Positions 1 through 34,666 of a stretch of DNA of 41,368 nucleotides are shown here, one piece after another. The notes under the pieces are model-generated. The model was given only the letters and a program-made list of their open reading frames with translations. It did not search any database and was not told the DNA's origin. Within the stretch, counting starts at the first letter, position 1; each line of letters starts with the position of its first letter. The stretch is taken from the NCBI RefSeq assembly GCF_003334255.1, contig NZ_QOWU01000051.1; one strand, 5' to 3'. The stretch comes from Escherichia coli (GTDB lineage Bacteria > Pseudomonadota > Gammaproteobacteria > Enterobacterales > Enterobacteriaceae). The translations under genes were made by a program, and so were the position numbers.

Positions 1-77
1 AATCGGTGGAGCTGCATGACAAAGTCATCGGGCATTATCTGAACATAAAACACTATCAATAAGTTGGAGTCATTACC
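1..77 (+). mobile_element. insB: IS1 right-end fragment: last 19 codons of insB plus the terminal inverted repeat (IRR); the element body lies left of the window
   Basis: Frame 3 of 3..62 translates to [19 protein letters not shown]-stop, which I recall as the InsB C-terminus. Bases 55..77 (atcaataagttggagtcattacc) are the reverse complement of the IS1 IRR GGTAATGACTCCAACTTATTGAT. The same 77 bp recur inverted at 41292..41368. Confidence 0.85.
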
Positions 78-282
78 TAAAATGACTGGTTTAGTAAAAT
101 GGTTTAACGCAGATAAAGGTTTTGGCTTTATCACTCCTGATGATGGCAGCAAAGACGTTTTCGTCCATTTCACCGCCATCCAGAGCAATGAATTCCGCAC
201 GCTGAACGAAAATCAGAAAGTTGAATTTTCTATTGAGCAGGGGCAACGTGGCCCCGCGGCAGCGAACGTTGTTACGCTCTAA
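78..282 (+). pseudogene. cspG: Cold-shock protein CspG, 5'-truncated at about codon 3 by the IS1 junction; an 82..282 ORF from the internal Met5 remains
   Basis: The ORF product ...[66 protein letters not shown] matches CspG from residue 5. The expected N-terminus MSNK and the native leader are replaced by IS1 sequence ending at base 77. Confidence 0.6.
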
Positions 283-481
283 GGTTGCCATTATTACTCA
301 ACATCTCCATTTCCGCTGTCCATGTTGTCATGGTTCACAGTACCGCACATCGGCATTCGATGTGACGGAGCGAAACCCTTTGGGCGCTAAGTGTATTTTT
401 TGTAAATCGACGATGATCACCTTTGATAACGTCGCGCTGCAAATACGCACTGACCATGCGCCGCTGGATTTCACAAAATAA
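221..481 (+). CDS. ymcF: Small zinc-ribbon protein (CPCC...CIFC), YmcF-like; start uncertain, the true product is probably shorter than the 86-aa ORF
   Basis: ORF between cspG and ymcE with two CxxC pairs. The ATG at 221 lies inside cspG; no canonical start is obvious after the cspG stop. Confidence 0.3.
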
Positions 482-897: not shown

Positions 898-1971
898 TTA
901 GTGACCAATCATTGGCGCTTGTGGAATTAAGCGTCGGTACAATTCCTCCGGCACCGGGCTTTGCCATACTCCCGCATACATTGCGTAACCAATCACCGCG
1001 AACATAATCCCCAGAACCAGTAGCGTCATTAACCAGCCAGACAACGCAAAAGCTTTTTTATTTGCCGCAGGTTTTTGCAGTGAAAAGGTCAATGTTGAGG
1101 CTACCGGACATGACTCTACGCAAGTCATACAGCCGGTACATTCCACTGTTCGTACCTGAATTAATTTATCGACCGGGATCCGTGATGGGCAATTTTTTGC
1201 GCATTTGCCACAGCCGATACAACTTTCGGCATTGCGACGAATCTTAAACGGCGATAATAGCGAAACCACGCCCATCAGCGCGCCATATGGGCAAAGATAA
1301 CGACACCAGGCATGGCGAATAAACAGGCTGGCAATCAGCAAAACGGTCACGCTGATTAATGTCGCGGTCCCCATATGACGAAAGAAATCGAGCATTTTTA
1401 CGTCCATCACCACGCTGTAGGGCGACAACATAAAATAGTGAATCGCCTGAGCGGGCATCAATAACGCGATATAGAGAAAAAAACTCAACAGCAAATACTT
1501 CACGCCGCGCAGAGGAATATCCAGCCAGCGGGGAAGGACACATTGCCGACCAAACAGTTTGTTACCGAGATCGCCGATTAATTCAGAAAGCGTACCAACC
1601 GGGCATAACCATGAGCAAAAGGCCTTTTTGAGTAATAGACTGATGACGATAAAAGCGACCAATAACAGCATCGCGGCGGCGTGGACGGACGGTAACTGAC
1701 CTGTTGTAAGGCTATATTTCAGATTCATCAGACCGGCAATCGGTAGCCAGCCTTCGATACCTCCCGGTCTGGCGACAAATGTCGTGCTACTTGCCGTTTC
1801 GTAATAGCGCACCCAATACCAGAACGTGATGGCAATATAAATATTCATTGCCAACAGTAATAATTGCGTCGCTTTACGCCAGGTCGTGGCATTGCGCCAG
1901 TCATTCCACGGTAATTTGCCGCCCGTCGTGCCTGGCCGCCGCTGCCAGCGGGTTCTTTTTTTCTCTGCCAT
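898..1971 (-). CDS. yccM: Polytopic membrane 4Fe-4S ferredoxin-type protein YccM (NapH/MauN-like)
   Basis: 357-aa ORF with several TM segments and CxxCxxC...CP motifs (CIGCGKCAKNCP, CTGCMTCVESCP). Confidence 0.9.
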   Translation of the reverse strand: MAEKKRTRWQRRPGTTGGKLPWNDWRNATTWRKATQLLLLAMNIYIAITFWYWVRYYETASSTTFVARPGGIEGWLPIAGLMNLKYSLTTGQLPSVHAAAMLLLVAFIVISLLLKKAFCSWLCPVGTLSELIGDLGNKLFGRQCVLPRWLDIPLRGVKYLLLSFFLYIALLMPAQAIHYFMLSPYSVVMDVKMLDFFRHMGTATLISVTVLLIASLFIRHAWCRYLCPYGALMGVVSLLSPFKIRRNAESCIGCGKCAKNCPSRIPVDKLIQVRTVECTGCMTCVESCPVASTLTFSLQKPAANKKAFALSGWLMTLLVLGIMFAVIGYAMYAGVWQSPVPEELYRRLIPQAPMIGH

Positions 1972-2042
1972 GATTTTGCCAGTCCGTTAAGTTGCATACC
2001 AAATGCCACTATTCTAGTTGTTCTTAACTGGCTGATATTGAT

Positions 2043-4787
2043 TCAAATCGCGTTCAGGTCTTTCTTATTCAACCATGCTTCCAGATCGGCAACACTGCGT
2101 GTAATTTCTTCGTGTGGAAGGGGGGCAGATAATGGCTGCTGCTCCAGTTGTGCGCATAGCTGGCTGGCGATACGCATTCCCAGACTCGAGCAACTGCTTT
2201 TTAGCTGATGCGCGGCACGCTTTATTTTCTCGCTATCCTGACTGGCGCGGGCAATGTCGATTTCATCGAGAAGCGGCAGGGCATGTTGTGTAAATAATAC
2301 CAGCCATTCGTGGATCTTCTCCGTCCCCATTAACTGAGCATCTTCATTGAGTTGCGATACATCCAGCGATTGATCGTTATTGACTTGCAGTTGGAGATAG
2401 TGCGCCAGTAACTGACCGAGCACTTCACGCGGCACCGGTTTAGGGATAATCCCGCGGAATAATGAACTGGTACGCTGGCGCAGCGTTTCGTCAATGACAT
2501 GGGCGCTAAAGCCAATCAAAACCAGCGACGGATATTGCTGTGCCAGTTGTCGGGCAAGCGTAATGCCGTCGACATCCGGCAGATCAAAATCCACCAGTGC
2601 GGCAGCAAACGGTTCGCTATTTTGCAGTGTCTCTAAAGCCTGCGCGGCATTGCCAACAGCAACAACCTGCGCACCACTGGTGTTCAGCATCTCAACGGTA
2701 ATTCGCTGGGTTAGCGGGTTATCTTCAATTAACAGCAAACGTAAACCGTCAAGACGCACCGCCTGATTGACTGTTTTTGGCACGGGTGCCGTGGCAACAC
2801 GTAACGGCAAGCGTAAACAAAAACAGCTTCCAACCTCCGGCGTGCTGGTGGCGCTCAGTTCGCCGCCCATCGCCTGGGCCAGACGGCTACTGATAGTCAG
2901 CCCCAGCCCGGTGCCGCCGCGTTTGCCGCTTACCTGCACAAATGGCTGGAAGATTTCTGCCAGTTTCGCGGGATCAATACCGCAGCCGCTGTCTTCCACT
3001 TCGACCAGCCATTGCTCGCCATCAGTGCGACTACGCAGGATAATGTACCCTTCGTCAGTAAAACGCAGGGCGTTGCTCAACAGGTTGGTTATAACCTGAC
3101 GAATACGTCGTGGATCGCCCATTAACGCGCACGGCATATCATCGGCAATTGCCGTTGCCAGGCGAATCGGGCGACCTTTCACCCGTCCGCTCATTAATTG
3201 CAGGGTACTTTCCAGCAGCGGGCGCGGTTCAAAGGGCTCATCGCTGACCGAAACATTCTTGCCACCTGCTTCGATAGCGGAATAATCGAGAATATCGTTG
3301 AGGATGGTCAGCAACGATTCACCAGAGTCAGTAATTGCCCGCAAATCATCACGCTGGGCGTTAAGTGCGGGGTTATCTGCCAGCAGTTGAGCAGTGCCGA
3401 GAATACCGTACAGCGGTGTGCGGATCTCATGGCTCATCGCCGCCAGAAACGCCGATTTTGCCTGGCTGGCTTTTTCTGCTTCCGCCCGTGCCTGTCGGTG
3501 TTCTATCACCAGTTCCTGCAATTCAGCTGTACGCGCTTTGACCTGCGCCGCCAGCTGTTCGCGGTGGCGATTCAGTGCATGAACATTGCTGCGAAACGCA
3601 TCCATCAGCCGCCCGATGGTATCCAGCTCCCGTACGCCAGCGGTTTCCGGGAAAGGGGAGTCAATATCACCGTCCAGCAGCCGTTGCAGCGCCTGCGTTT
3701 GTTCGGCAAGTGGACGCGTGACTGAGCGATAAACCACGCGCCAGAGGATCAGAATCAGTGCGCAAAGTGAAACCATCCCCAGCAATAACAGGCTGTATTG
3801 CCCGCGTGCACTCGCTTTTTCCAGATGCGCCAGTCCGTGCTGATTACGCAGCTCAATGGTGTCGACCAGCTGACTGACTTCGCTACTAAACTGCGCGAAC
3901 TGGGCGATGTTATTTTGTGCGAGAGTTTGTAGGTGATTGCTGATTTCACTGTCCTGCTGATACAGCGCCAGCAAATCGCTATATTGGCTAACGGTAGTTA
4001 ACGTTGTTGCGACCTGCGCACGAACACCCGGATCTTCAATGCGTATTTGCCGACGTTGCAGAATTTTCACCGCATTATTGAGCTGCTTTTCCAGCGTTGG
4101 TGCATTTTTCTGGATCTGCTCCAGCCCCAGATTCATCACCATTTGCTGCACCCGCAGAGCGCTAAGGCGCAGTTCATTCATCTGGTTAACATACTCAAGA
4201 TCGATATCAATCAGCCGATCGAGTGCACTTTCAGCAGCCTGACGCTGATCTTGTTCGATCAAATCGTAAATCCCGGCCTGGGTCGCTCCAGCGGAAGTTG
4301 TCGCATTATTCGCCTGACCTTGCGCCAGGCGTGCGATCTCATCGGCGGCAGCGACTATCTGCTGACTGAGTTGCTGTTGTTGCTGGCGCAGTTGCAAACG
4401 CTGCCCCACCAGTTCCCCTTGCTGACGTAACGAACGGGAGATCTCCTGCTCCTGTTGTTCAATAGCGGTGGTATCAAAACCTTGTTCCCGTAACGCTTGC
4501 AGCAACGCATTAATCTTCAGGCTTTGTGCGGTGAGCATTCGCCCCTGCGCCTGCCACATCTTTTCGTTATCGGCACTGGTCAGGTTCTGCGCGGCGAAAA
4601 GTTCCCAGGCGCTGGCTTCGCTCAACTGGCGCGCCATATTCATGGTAGGAATCAATGCCTGAGTGTTGTCTTTTTCCACCTGGCTGATAAAGCGCAGGTT
4701 GTACCATCCCACCAGGGTACTGGTCAGGGTTAACAGCGCCATCAGGGCAAAGCCCATCCAGAGTCTTCGGGTCAGGGTTAAATTCAC
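2043..4787 (-). CDS. torS: TMAO sensor hybrid histidine kinase TorS
   Basis: 914-aa ORF with an N-terminal TM/periplasmic region, HisKA (SHEIRTP), receiver and C-terminal HPt domain; sits divergent from torT. Confidence 0.95.
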
Positions 4788-11007: not shown

Positions 11008-11028
11008 CGTCGTTTGTGCGCCTGAAAA

Positions 11029-29422: not shown

Positions 29423-29720
29423 GGGACTTAGCCTGCGGCGGTTTTGTTTGGCTTCAGCAGCGGGTTGCGCTCCCTTAATGTGCCTCGCCATATAAATTGA
29501 ATGGTGCAGGGAGCGCGCAGGGGGCGGCCAATCGCCGCCGCCCCCTGCTGTCCCGGCCTTCGGGGAACGCTTCAGCGATTTTGACGCCACCAACACCCGA
29601 GCTGTTATTATGTTCCGGGCAAAAAGTTAGATTTGATAATCGCGGATGGACGAAATTGCTTGATACACCCGCTTATCAGTTTTACATGGAAGCTCTGATG
29701 CATTGAGTCTGGACAGTTTT

Positions 29721-29757
29721 GTCGGCTGGATACGGCGTTTACGCGGCATCCGGCAAG
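29721..29757. repeat. REP element
   Basis: gtcggctggatacggcgtttacgcggcatccggcaag palindromic unit. Confidence 0.5.
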
Positions 29758-29887
29758 AACACATGGTTCTTTGCAAACAATCCCATCTTTCTACCCTGGA
29801 ATAATCGTTTATATCCCTTGGCATTACCTCTCTTTGTTTACATTCCAACATCATTTTATAAACATTCCGCTTGTGTTTTTCTTTGCC

Positions 29888-29907
29888 GTAATGATAATCG
29901 CTATCAC
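29888..29907. promoter_or_regulatory. Candidate Fur box in the efeU promoter
   Basis: gtaatgataatcgctatcac resembles GATAATGATAATCATTATC; about 60 bp upstream of the efeU start. Confidence 0.45.
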
Positions 29908-29964
29908 TGCGATTTACTTTTCTTTGCATAGATTGACTCAGAAAAACGTTTAAGGGTGGGTGGC

Positions 29965-30795
29965 ATGTTTGTTCCGTTTCTCATTATGTTGCGCGAAGGA
30001 CTTGAAGCCGCGCTGATTGTCAGTTTGATTGCCAGCTATCTTAAGCGTACCCAGCGAGGCCGATGGATTGGTGTGATGTGGATTGGCGTGTTGCTTGCCG
30101 CTGCGTTGTGCCTGGGCTTGGGTATCTTCATTAACGAAACCACCGGCGAATTTCCGCAAAAAGAACAGGAACTGTTTGAAGGTATCGTGGCGGTGATCGC
30201 CGTGGTGATCCTTACCTGGATGGTTTTCTGGATGCGCAAAGTGTCGCGCAACGTCAAAGTGCAACTGGAACAGGCAGTCGATAGCGCATTGCAGCGTGGA
30301 AATCATCATGGCTGGGCGCTGGTGATGATGGTCTTTTTTGCCGTTGCAAGGGAAGGGCTGGAGTCGGTCTTTTTCCTGCTGGCGGCATTTCAACAAGATG
30401 TCGGGATCTGGCCGCCGCTGGGTGCAATGCTCGGTCTTGCTACTGCCGTGGTGCTAGGCTTCCTGCTCTACTGGGGCGGTATTCGCCTCAATCTTGGTGC
30501 ATTTTTTAAATGGACCAGCCTGTTTATTCTCTTCGTCGCCGCAGGGCTGGCAGCTGGTGCCATTCGCGCATTTCATGAAGCCGGATTGTGGAACCACTTT
30601 CAGGAAATCGCCTTCGATATGAGTGCGGTGCTCTCAACTCACTCGCTGTTTGGCACGCTGATGGAAGGGATTTTTGGCTATCAGGAAGCGCCGAGCGTCA
30701 GCGAAGTCGCCGTCTGGTTTATTTATCTCATCCCGGCGCTGGTGGCATTTGCTCTGCCACCACGCGCAGGGGCGACAGCGTCTCGCTCCGCGTAA
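29965..30795 (+). CDS. efeU: Ferrous iron permease EfeU (FTR1 family), intact reading frame
   Basis: 276 aa from MFVPFLIMLREGLEAAL...; two REGLE motifs; one uninterrupted ORF. Confidence 0.9.
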   Translation: MFVPFLIMLREGLEAALIVSLIASYLKRTQRGRWIGVMWIGVLLAAALCLGLGIFINETTGEFPQKEQELFEGIVAVIAVVILTWMVFWMRKVSRNVKVQLEQAVDSALQRGNHHGWALVMMVFFAVAREGLESVFFLLAAFQQDVGIWPPLGAMLGLATAVVLGFLLYWGGIRLNLGAFFKWTSLFILFVAAGLAAGAIRAFHEAGLWNHFQEIAFDMSAVLSTHSLFGTLMEGIFGYQEAPSVSEVAVWFIYLIPALVAFALPPRAGATASRSA

Positions 30796-30852
30796 CAAAT
30801 ACGACGCAAACTCTTGCTTAGTTACAACATACTTTAAAGGGATAGTCTCGTC

Positions 30853-31980
30853 ATGACCATTAACTTCCGCCGTAACGCATTGCAGTTGAGCGTGGCTGCG
30901 CTGTTTTCTTCTGCTTTTATGGCTAACGCCGCTGATGTGCCGCAGGTCAAAGTGACCGTGACGGATAAGCAGTGCGAACCGATGACCATTACGGTTAACG
31001 CCGGGAAAACACAGTTCATTATTCAGAACCACAGCCAGAAGGCGCTGGAGTGGGAGATCCTCAAAGGCGTGATGGTGGTGGAAGAGCGGGAAAATATCGC
31101 CCCTGGCTTTAGCCAGAAAATGACGGCGAATTTACAGCCTGGCGAATACGATATGACCTGCGGTCTGCTGACTAACCCGAAAGGGAAGTTGATCGTCAAA
31201 GGTGAGGCAACGGCGGATGCGGCGCAAAGTGATGCGCTGTTAAGTCTTGGTGGTGCAATTACTGCATATAAAGCGTATGTCATGGCGGAAACCACGCAGC
31301 TGGTGACCGACACCAAAGCCTTTACCGACGCGATTAAAGCAGGCGATATCGAAAAAGCGAAAGCACTGTATGCACCGACGCGCCAGCACTATGAGCGTAT
31401 TGAACCGATTGCTGAACTGTTCTCCGATCTGGATGGCAGCATTGACGCCCGTGAAGATGATTACGAGCAAAAAGCCGCCGACCCAAAATTCACTGGTTTC
31501 CACCGTCTGGAAAAAGCATTGTTTGGCGACAACACCACCAAAGGGATGGATCAGTACGCTGAGCAGCTTTATACCGATGTGGTCGATTTGCAAAAACGCA
31601 TCAGTGAACTGGCTTTCCCACCTTCAAAAGTGGTCGGCGGCGCAGCCGGACTGATTGAGGAAGTGGCAGCCAGCAAAATTAGCGGTGAAGAAGATCGCTA
31701 CAGCCACACCGATCTGTGGGATTTCCAGGCTAACGTTGAAGGCTCGCAGAAAATTGTCGATTTGCTGCGTCCACAACTGCAAAAAGCCAACCCGGAACTG
31801 CTGGCAAAAGTCGATGCCAACTTTAAAAAGGTCGATACCATTCTGGCGAAATACCGTACTAAAGACGGTTTTGAAACCTACGACAAATTGACCGATGCCG
31901 ACCGGAATGCACTGAAAGGACCGATTACTGCGCTGGCGGAAGATCTGGCGCAACTTCGCGGTGTGCTGGGACTGGATTAA
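30853..31980 (+). CDS. efeO: Periplasmic iron uptake protein EfeO
   Basis: 375-aa ORF with a signal peptide ([26 protein letters not shown]). Confidence 0.95.
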
Positions 31981-31985
31981 GCGTT

Positions 31986-33257
31986 ATGCAGTATAAAGAT
32001 GAAAACGGCGTGAATGAACCGTCACGCCGACGTTTACTGAAAGTGATAGGTGCACTGGCGCTGGCGGGAAGTTGTCCGGTCGCTCATGCACAAAAAACGC
32101 AAAGTGCGCCGGGTACGCTTTCACCGGATGCTCGCAATGAGAAACAGCCGTTTTATGGTGAGCATCAGGCAGGGATCCTGACGCCACAACAGGCCGCAAT
32201 GATGCTGGTGGCGTTTGATGTGCTTGCCAGCGATAAAGCCGATCTTGAGCGGTTGTTTCGCTTGTTGACTCAGCGTTTTGCTTTTCTGACTCAGGGCGGA
32301 GCAGCACCAGAAACGCCAAATCCGCGCCTGCCACCACTCGATTCCGGCATTCTTGGCGGCTACATTGCGCCCGATAATCTCACCATCACGTTATCGGTGG
32401 GTCACTCATTGTTTGATGAGCGCTTTGGCCTTGCGCCACAGATGCCAAAAAAGCTGCAGAAGATGACGCGTTTCCCCAACGACTCGCTGGATGCGGCGTT
32501 ATGTCATGGTGATGTGTTGCTACAGATTTGCGCCAACACCCAGGACACGGTTATCCATGCGCTGCGCGATATCATCAAACACACGCCGGATTTGCTCAGT
32601 GTGCGCTGGAAGCGGGAAGGGTTTATTTCCGATCACGCGGCGCGTAGTAAAGGCAAAGAGACGCCGATTAATTTGCTGGGTTTCAAAGACGGCACTGCCA
32701 ATCCCGATAGCCAGAATGATAAGTTGATGCAAAAAGTGGTGTGGGTAACGGCAGATCAGCAGGAGCCTGCGTGGGCAATCGGTGGCAGCTATCAGGCAGT
32801 ACGCTTGATTCAGTTTCGAGTGGAATTTTGGGACAGAACGCCGCTGAAAGAACAGCAGACGATTTTTGGCCGTGATAAGCAAACCGGTGCGCCGCTGGGA
32901 ATGCAGCATGAGCATGATGTGCCTGATTACGCCAGCGACCCGGAAGGGAAGGTGATCGCGCTGGACAGCCATATCCGGCTGGCGAATCCCCGCACGGCGG
33001 AGAGTGAGTCCAGCCTGATGCTGCGTCGTGGCTACAGTTATTCACTGGGCGTCACCAACTCCGGGCAACTGGATATGGGGTTGCTGTTTGTCTGCTACCA
33101 ACACGATCTGGAAAAAGGCTTCCTGACAGTACAAAAAAGGCTCAATGGCGAAGCGCTGGAGGAATACGTTAAACCTATCGGCGGCGGTTATTTTTTTGCG
33201 CTGCCGGGGGTGAAGGACGCGAACGATTATTTCGGAAGCGCGTTATTGCGGGTTTAA
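31986..33257 (+). CDS. efeB: Dye-decolorising haem peroxidase EfeB (Tat-exported)
   Basis: 423-aa ORF with a twin-arginine signal ([17 protein letters not shown]). Confidence 0.95.
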
Positions 33258-33266
33258 TGTTTTTAG

Positions 33267-33400
33267 GCGGATAAGGCATTTGTGCGCAGATGCCTGATGC
33301 GACGCTTGCGCGTCTTATCATGCCTACAATCAGTGCGGGTTTGGTAGGCTGGATAAGGCGTTCACGCCGCATCCGGCGATCGTGCACTGATGCCTGATGC
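33267..33400. repeat. REP/BIME cluster
   Basis: ggcggataaggcatttgtgcgcagatgcctgatgcg and ggctggataaggcgttcacgccgcatccggcg palindromic units. Confidence 0.55.
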
Positions 33401-33434
33401 AAATCCTGCTGAAAGCACACAGCTTTTTTCATCA

Positions 33435-33601: not shown

Positions 33602-34666
33602 ATGGTAACGTCCTGTACTGGACATGTTTTAGATAATCAACGCGCCACCACTCGCGGAGTTTTCTCCTCCGGTAGTCATCTCGTCACTTTGCATTTTCAA
33701 CCTCATCCTTTCTTTTCATGTGTTACCGACGCCGTAAACGGTGCGCGTAGCCGTTTTTCGGCATTTTATCCAAAAGCAAACTATGGCTTACAAGGAAGCC
33801 AACCCTCTGATGTTCGTGCGCATAATCGCGCTGCCAACGGCGCGTGTGATGAATACAAACAACTCAAGGTGCTCTCCATGGGAAGACAAAAAGCAGTGAT
33901 CAAAGCTCGTCGCGAGGCAAAACGTGTGCTGAGACGGGATTCGCGCAGCCATAAGCAGCGTGAAGAAGAATCGGTCACCTCGCTTGTGCAGATGGGCGGC
34001 GTAGAAGCCATTGGTATGGCCCGCGACAGTCGCGATACTTCGCCCATCCTCGCGCGAAATGAAGCGCAATTGCACTATCTGAAGGCTATTGAGAGTAAGC
34101 AGCTGATATTCGCCACGGGCGAAGCCGGGTGCGGAAAAACCTGGATCAGCGCAGCAAAAGCGGCAGAGGCCCTGATACATAAGGATGTCGACAGGATTAT
34201 CGTCACCCGTCCAGTTCTGCAAGCCGATGAAGATCTTGGCTTCTTACCTGGAGATATCGCAGAAAAGTTTGCTCCCTATTTTCGCCCGGTCTACGACGTG
34301 CTGGTCCGGCGCTTAGGGGCTTCCTTTATGCAGTACTGCCTGCGACCGGAAATAGGGAAGGTGGAAATTGCGCCGTTCGCCTATATGCGTGGACGTACCT
34401 TTGAAAATGCAGTCGTCATTCTTGACGAGGCGCAGAATGTGACTGCCGCGCAAATGAAAATGTTTTTAACCCGCCTCGGGGAGAACGTGACGGTTATCGT
34501 CAACGGTGATATCACGCAATGCGATTTGCCTCGCGGCGTGTGCTCCGGATTAAGTGACGCGCTGGAACGTTTCGAAGAAGATGAAATGGTTGGGATCGTC
34601 CGGTTCGGTAAAGAGGACTGCGTACGTTCGGCACTTTGCCAACGTACGCTGCATGCCTACAGTTAA
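33602..34666 (+). CDS. phoH: Phosphate-starvation-inducible ATPase PhoH
   Basis: 354-aa ORF with a Walker A motif (GEAGCGKT); Pho box upstream. Confidence 0.9.
   Translation: MVTSCTGHVLDNQRATTRGVFSSGSHLVTLHFQPHPFFSCVTDAVNGARSRFSAFYPKANYGLQGSQPSDVRAHNRAANGACDEYKQLKVLSMGRQKAVIKARREAKRVLRRDSRSHKQREEESVTSLVQMGGVEAIGMARDSRDTSPILARNEAQLHYLKAIESKQLIFATGEAGCGKTWISAAKAAEALIHKDVDRIIVTRPVLQADEDLGFLPGDIAEKFAPYFRPVYDVLVRRLGASFMQYCLRPEIGKVEIAPFAYMRGRTFENAVVILDEAQNVTAAQMKMFLTRLGENVTVIVNGDITQCDLPRGVCSGLSDALERFEEDEMVGIVRFGKEDCVRSALCQRTLHAYS

Follow-up and report, generated by a model that had tools for sequence, protein, structure and literature searches.

An uninterrupted efeU in an efeUOB operon of Escherichia coli, compared with the frameshifted allele of K-12

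Does the efeU gene of this Escherichia coli contig encode a complete iron permease, and what does its state tell about the operon around it and about the strain that carries it? The K-12 literature gives the question its edge: in MG1655 the transporter is inactive owing to a frameshift in efeU (PMC2808357), and EfeUOB has been described as 'cryptic in K-12' (PMC4361602). An earlier note on the same DNA had proposed that the permease gene is uninterrupted here and followed by efeO and efeB, that the system should be functional, and that the source is not an MG1655-type K-12. We analyzed the whole stretch of 41,368 nucleotides (contig NZ_QOWU01000051.1, hereafter the window). With a probability that we put at about 0.93, it carries efeUOB in its ordinary, intact and ancestral form, and comes from an E. 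coli other than K-12.

The list of open reading frames contains a single plus-strand frame from 29956 to 30795, which gives 279 residues if read from a GTG codon and 276 residues if read from the ATG at 29965. The ATG is the start used in the RefSeq annotation of identical DNA in E. coli C. Read from there, efeU (29965..30795, plus strand) is one intact frame of 276 codons, as the earlier note had claimed. Its product, an inner-membrane iron permease of the FTR1/OFeT family, scores 331.2 bits against the NCBIfam EfeU equivalog NF041756 (cut-off 255) and 351.7 bits against TIGR00145 (cut-off 303.8), and the Pfam FTR1 model matches residues 1-275 (2e-89; model positions 1-283 of 284). The protein is 100% identical to RefSeq WP_000497942.1, the EfeU of E. 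coli C and of the O157:H7 strain PV15-279. The two REGLE (REXXE) motifs that had been read in the permease were located on the translation by regular expression, at residues 10-14 (29992..30006, plus strand) and 129-133 (30349..30363, plus strand).

EfeU has been described as an OFeT permease with seven helices and with homology to yeast Ftr1p (PMC9174327). A Kyte-Doolittle hydropathy scan over 19 residues with a cut-off of 1.6 gave, after merging, six hydrophobic stretches in EfeU, at about residues 1-24, 32-60, 68-94, 146-173, 177-204 and 242-266; the segment that holds the second REGLE, the would-be seventh helix, falls below the cut-off. A sequence search of the PDB retrieved no solved relative of EfeU.

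The difference from K-12 comes down to one nucleotide. In MG1655, efeU (b4490, formerly ycdN; NC_000913.3 1081356-1082185) is annotated by RefSeq as a pseudogene of 830 bases, against 831 in the window. In a pairwise alignment of window positions 29800-30860 with MG1655, 1,060 of the 1,061 columns are identical, the upstream and promoter region included, and the only difference is a G absent from MG1655 at window position 30070/30071. It is also the only indel in the comparison of the 41-kb window with MG1655. At codons 36-37 the window has a GG dinucleotide (30070..30071, plus strand) and reads GATTGGTGTG; the K-12-type allele with a single G, GATTGTGTG, is absent from it. This single-G state is the K-12 frameshift: translated from the same ATG, MG1655 efeU meets a stop at codon 37. 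The statement of the earlier note that K-12 carries a frameshifted efeU thus holds on the pseudogene annotation, the alignment, the codon-37 stop and two published accounts (PMC2808357, PMC7549933). The same alignment, which the note had proposed as a check, shows that the window does not share the frameshift.

The operon continues intact downstream of efeU, in the order efeU-efeO-efeB, with all three genes on the plus strand and separated by gaps of 57 and 5 bases. efeO (30853..31980, plus strand) encodes a periplasmic cupredoxin plus M75 (imelysin) protein of 375 residues with an N-terminal signal-like sequence. It scores 772.5 bits against NCBIfam NF007697 and 479.5 bits against NF041757; in Pfam, Cupredoxin_1 covers residues 13-115 (1.4e-24) and Peptidase_M75 residues 135-368 (5.2e-42). 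The protein is identical to the EfeO of K-12. efeB (31986..33257, plus strand) encodes a DyP-type haem peroxidase/deferrochelatase of 423 residues with a twin-arginine leader (SRRRLLK). The PDB entries 2Y4F, 2Y4D and 3O72, which are YcdB/EfeB structures, match it with E-values of about 1e-264 to 1e-267. It reaches 617.9 bits against TIGR01412 ('tat_substr_1', cut-off 428) and contains the Pfam domains Dyp_perox_N and Dyp_perox_C. Residues D235, H329 and R347, which serve in catalysis and haem ligation in the structure of the O157:H7 EfeB, are kept. For all three proteins of the operon, the NCBIfam scores lie well beyond the curated cut-offs. Both genes predicted to follow efeU are therefore present, uninterrupted and with the expected domains, and they correspond to the published description of EfeO as a periplasmic Cup plus M75 protein and of EfeB as a Tat-exported haem protein (PMC9174327).

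One feature of the operon departs from the common form. Residue 264 of EfeB is an alanine (window position 32775), in contrast to the threonine of K-12, E. coli C and O157:H7; T264A is the sole difference between this EfeB and that of K-12. An 81-mer spanning the substitution was found as an exact match in 7 of 4,921 complete-genome records. Its carriers are isolates from human, pig and seawater and one unlabelled isolate, and they include JP538 and B-1109. The substitution is the only oddity within the operon, and it is rare.

Upstream of efeU, the putP-efeU spacer contains a candidate Fur box, as the earlier note had suggested. The 19-base stretch CGTAATGATAATCGCTATC (29887..29905, plus strand), which lies 60-78 bases before the ATG of efeU, agrees with the consensus GATAATGATAATCATTATC at 15 of 19 positions. 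A search for the consensus with at most three mismatches returned no match; this stretch has four mismatches and was found when every position of the 41-kb window was ranked on either strand, a ranking in which it is the best match and the only one at 15/19. Its 19 bases are unchanged in O157:H7 and MG1655. As a sequence match the putative box is thus borne out. A pattern scan of the same spacer gave a direct repeat on the minus strand at 29913..29927 (TTTACTTTTCTTTGC on the plus strand), with one mismatch to GTAAA-N5-GTAAA, which hints at a possible CpxR site. In K-12, efeU is listed as negatively regulated by CpxR (PMC9600279). Scanned with the sigma-70 consensus, the region upstream of efeU yielded no promoter-like site at the threshold used.

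Two further observations concern the spacers themselves. GC-rich palindromes that resemble REP/BIME elements (GCCGGATGCGGCGT...-type units) were seen by eye in the putP-efeU and efeB-phoH spacers, at 29720-29760 and 33260-33420. Intergenic regions of E. coli typically contain elements of this kind. In O157:H7 PV15-279, an extra hypothetical gene of 1.3 kb lies on the opposite strand between putP and efeU (1412-2755 of the compared locus, L003). This gene is absent from the window, from K-12 and from E. coli C, which marks the putP-efeU spacer as a variable spot.

Which of the two efeU alleles is the usual one was read from complete E. coli genomes. The intact 81-mer around codons 36-37 occurs as an exact match in 3,588 of 5,418 records, and the remainder carry a substitution within that stretch. 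The 80-mer with the K-12 deletion is exact in 368 of the same 5,418 records; among the 60 matches listed, all carriers are K-12 laboratory strains, MG1655, C600, DH5alpha, DH1, J53 and NCM3722 among them. An intact efeU is the normal state of wild E. coli and the majority allele, and K-12 is the exception. The window keeps the exact ancestral K-12 efe haplotype: over 1,061 bases a single G sets the two apart, and the 25 kb around them contain just 3 SNPs. For this reason, the K-12 frameshift probably arose once and very recently, in the K-12 lineage alone, perhaps during laboratory domestication or just before it; on this view it is not an allele in circulation among wild E. coli.

Two side observations were made with the efeU region itself (window positions 29700-30900) as query. 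Among 5,426 complete genomes of E. coli, 8 gave no match to it at all, and seven of its matches sit on records labelled as plasmids.

How close, then, is the source to K-12? Window positions 78-41291 are collinear with MG1655 1051469-1092681, at 99.92% identity over 41,214 aligned bases, with 32 substitutions and one indel. The window also has two IS1 junctions that are missing from MG1655. These differences bear out the earlier claim that the source is not an MG1655-type K-12. The substitutions are unevenly spread: 21 of the 32 cluster within the 1.9 kb of window positions 1000-2901 (yccM and 3' torS sequence), which leaves 11 for the other 38 kb. The cluster changes 11 codons (for example TorS H907N, A901D, H872R and K702N) and has the appearance of a patch brought in by recombination from an E. 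coli that is more distant. In the right-hand 25 kb, by comparison, only 3 SNPs and the efeU indel separate the window from K-12. Close to the efe genes, two other nonsynonymous differences from K-12 were found, PutP A432V (29208) and PgaA V540I (39282). The best matches to this right-hand part are JP538, from a pig, and B-1109, from a human, both of which share the rare efeB allele. Judged by its nucleotides in this region, the source is a close relative of K-12.

The ends of the window bear on its nature. Positions 1-77 and 41292-41368 carry one and the same sequence, the 77-base right terminus of IS1 (...CAATAAGTTGGAGTCATTACC), as an inverted pair. That exactly 77 bases of IS1 stand at each end points to the window being a complete contig of a de Bruijn short-read assembly (k=77) that was broken off at copies of IS1. 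On the left, the junction with IS1 falls within codon 3 of cspG (MG1655 1051469); on the right, it falls between pgaA and dgcT (MG1655 1092681). In the 5,426 complete E. coli genomes searched, neither of the two was present as one contiguous piece. Therefore, the source probably has a disrupted cspG, or else an IS1-adjacent deletion that removed cspH. Rfam models located four further features in the window. Ysr251 (RF02855) is full-length on the minus strand at 34468-34661, antisense to the 3' part of phoH, with 189 bits against a gathering threshold of 100. The cspA-type thermoregulator of cspG (1-336, plus strand) matches at gathering level and is truncated at the 5' side by the adjoining IS1 terminus. 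A REP-derived naRNA4 lies after torD (11019-11097, minus strand), also at gathering level, and ES036 (16984-17026, minus strand) scores just above threshold.

Three other readings of the intact frame were weighed against an ordinary operon in a non-K-12 strain. If the source were truly a K-12 derivative, the additional G could be a sequencing or assembly error, or the frame a slip of ORF calling. Such an artefact would have to account for one base only, in 1,061 bases otherwise identical to MG1655, and the window does resemble a short-read contig. However, 32 further differences separate the window from MG1655, which is also without its two IS1 junctions; the GG allele is in the majority, with 3,588 records matching exactly; and GG versus G is no long homopolymer prone to miscalls. 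An artefact is thus extremely improbable, and we rejected it as effectively refuted by the 32 SNPs. A K-12 lineage in which efeU has been repaired, by engineering or by reversion, would likewise explain why the right-hand 25 kb is only 3 SNPs and an indel away from K-12, and an in-frame operon has indeed been placed in K-12 experimentally (PMC7549933). A repair at efeU would, however, leave unexplained the 21 SNPs in yccM-torS and the others across tor and yccE, all far from efeU, and it is the wild isolates JP538 and B-1109, with their rare efeB allele, that match the right-hand 25 kb best. This origin, too, has next to no chance of being the right one, and it was rejected on the 32 SNPs.

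The third reading accepts the frame and doubts the function: the operon might be intact on paper and yet not work, for example if EfeB T264A impaired the peroxidase or if trans-acting differences intervened. The rarity of the substitution, with its 81-mer exact in 7 of 4,921 records, speaks for it. On the other side, EfeU and EfeO equal reference proteins residue for residue, EfeB D235, H329 and R347 are intact, and a change from threonine to alanine is conservative. Moreover, the T264A allele persists in several unrelated isolates (human, pig and seawater), and the promoter region is the same as that of K-12, whose efeU is reported to be CpxR-regulated (PMC9600279). We consider a non-functional operon improbable, if less so than an artefact or a repaired K-12. 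An ordinary, ancestral and intact efeUOB operon in a non-K-12 E. coli thus remains the preferred reading.

On that reading, the published work on this system suggests how the three genes might act together. efeU, efeO and efeB would be transcribed as one tricistronic operon, which Fur-Fe2+ would repress and which CpxR would repress when the pH is higher. In acid and with little iron, the periplasmic EfeO and EfeB would handle or oxidise Fe2+ and pass iron on to EfeU, and EfeU would move it across the inner membrane by means of the glutamates of its REXXE motifs. From the intact efeUOB, a working acid-induced route of ferrous iron uptake may therefore be expected that is missing in K-12. EfeUOB was reportedly shown to work in O157:H7 by Cao et al. 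2007 (Mol Microbiol 65:857). That the EfeUOB of the window is functional, as the earlier note had proposed, is accordingly a prediction, well founded on identity with the system tested in O157:H7. Support of another kind comes from an in-frame operon, with which growth under iron restriction is regained according to PMC7549933, which cites Cao 2007.

Neither the intact efeU nor the K-12 frameshift is new, both having been published in 2006-2007 (Grosse 2006; Cao 2007). For the strain at hand, the consequence would be an acid-induced EfeUOB route that laboratory K-12 does not have. This could be of use in the choice of a host for work on iron physiology and in the reading of K-12 data, and carries little weight beyond annotation. 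An intact efeUOB holds for most sequenced E. coli.

Set beside known systems, the locus stands between two close neighbours. With K-12 MG1655 and its efeU pseudogene, it shares the same DNA over 1,061 bases, promoter region included, save one G, as well as an identical EfeO. Unlike the window, MG1655 has one G fewer at 30070/30071, a stop at codon 37 and Thr264 in EfeB. The second neighbour is the EfeUOB (YcdNOB) system of O157:H7. Like the window, O157:H7 has the locus between putP and phoH and in the same gene order, with a 100% identical EfeU and an identical 19-base Fur-box candidate. The O157:H7 strain differs by one residue in EfeO and by six in EfeB, where it has Thr264 in place of the Ala264 found here, and by the additional 1.3-kb hypothetical gene between putP and efeU. 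The EfeUOB (YcdNOB) systems of O157:H7 and of Nissle 1917 are reported to have been described by Cao et al. 2007 and Grosse et al. 2006 (Mol Microbiol 62:120).

At a greater distance, EfeU belongs with the yeast Ftr1p/Fet3p system and with the bacterial FtrABCD, P19-cFtr1 and FepABC systems, with which it shares the Pfam FTR1 family and paired REXXE motifs. The relationship of EfeU to permeases of the Ftr1p/Fet3p type has been set out before (PMC9174327). Like EfeUOB, the yeast system and its bacterial relatives combine the permease with a periplasmic partner of cupredoxin type. The partners differ: in the yeast-type system the permease is paired with a multicopper oxidase, whereas the EfeU of the window is accompanied by EfeO, with its Cup and M75 domains, and by a DyP peroxidase.
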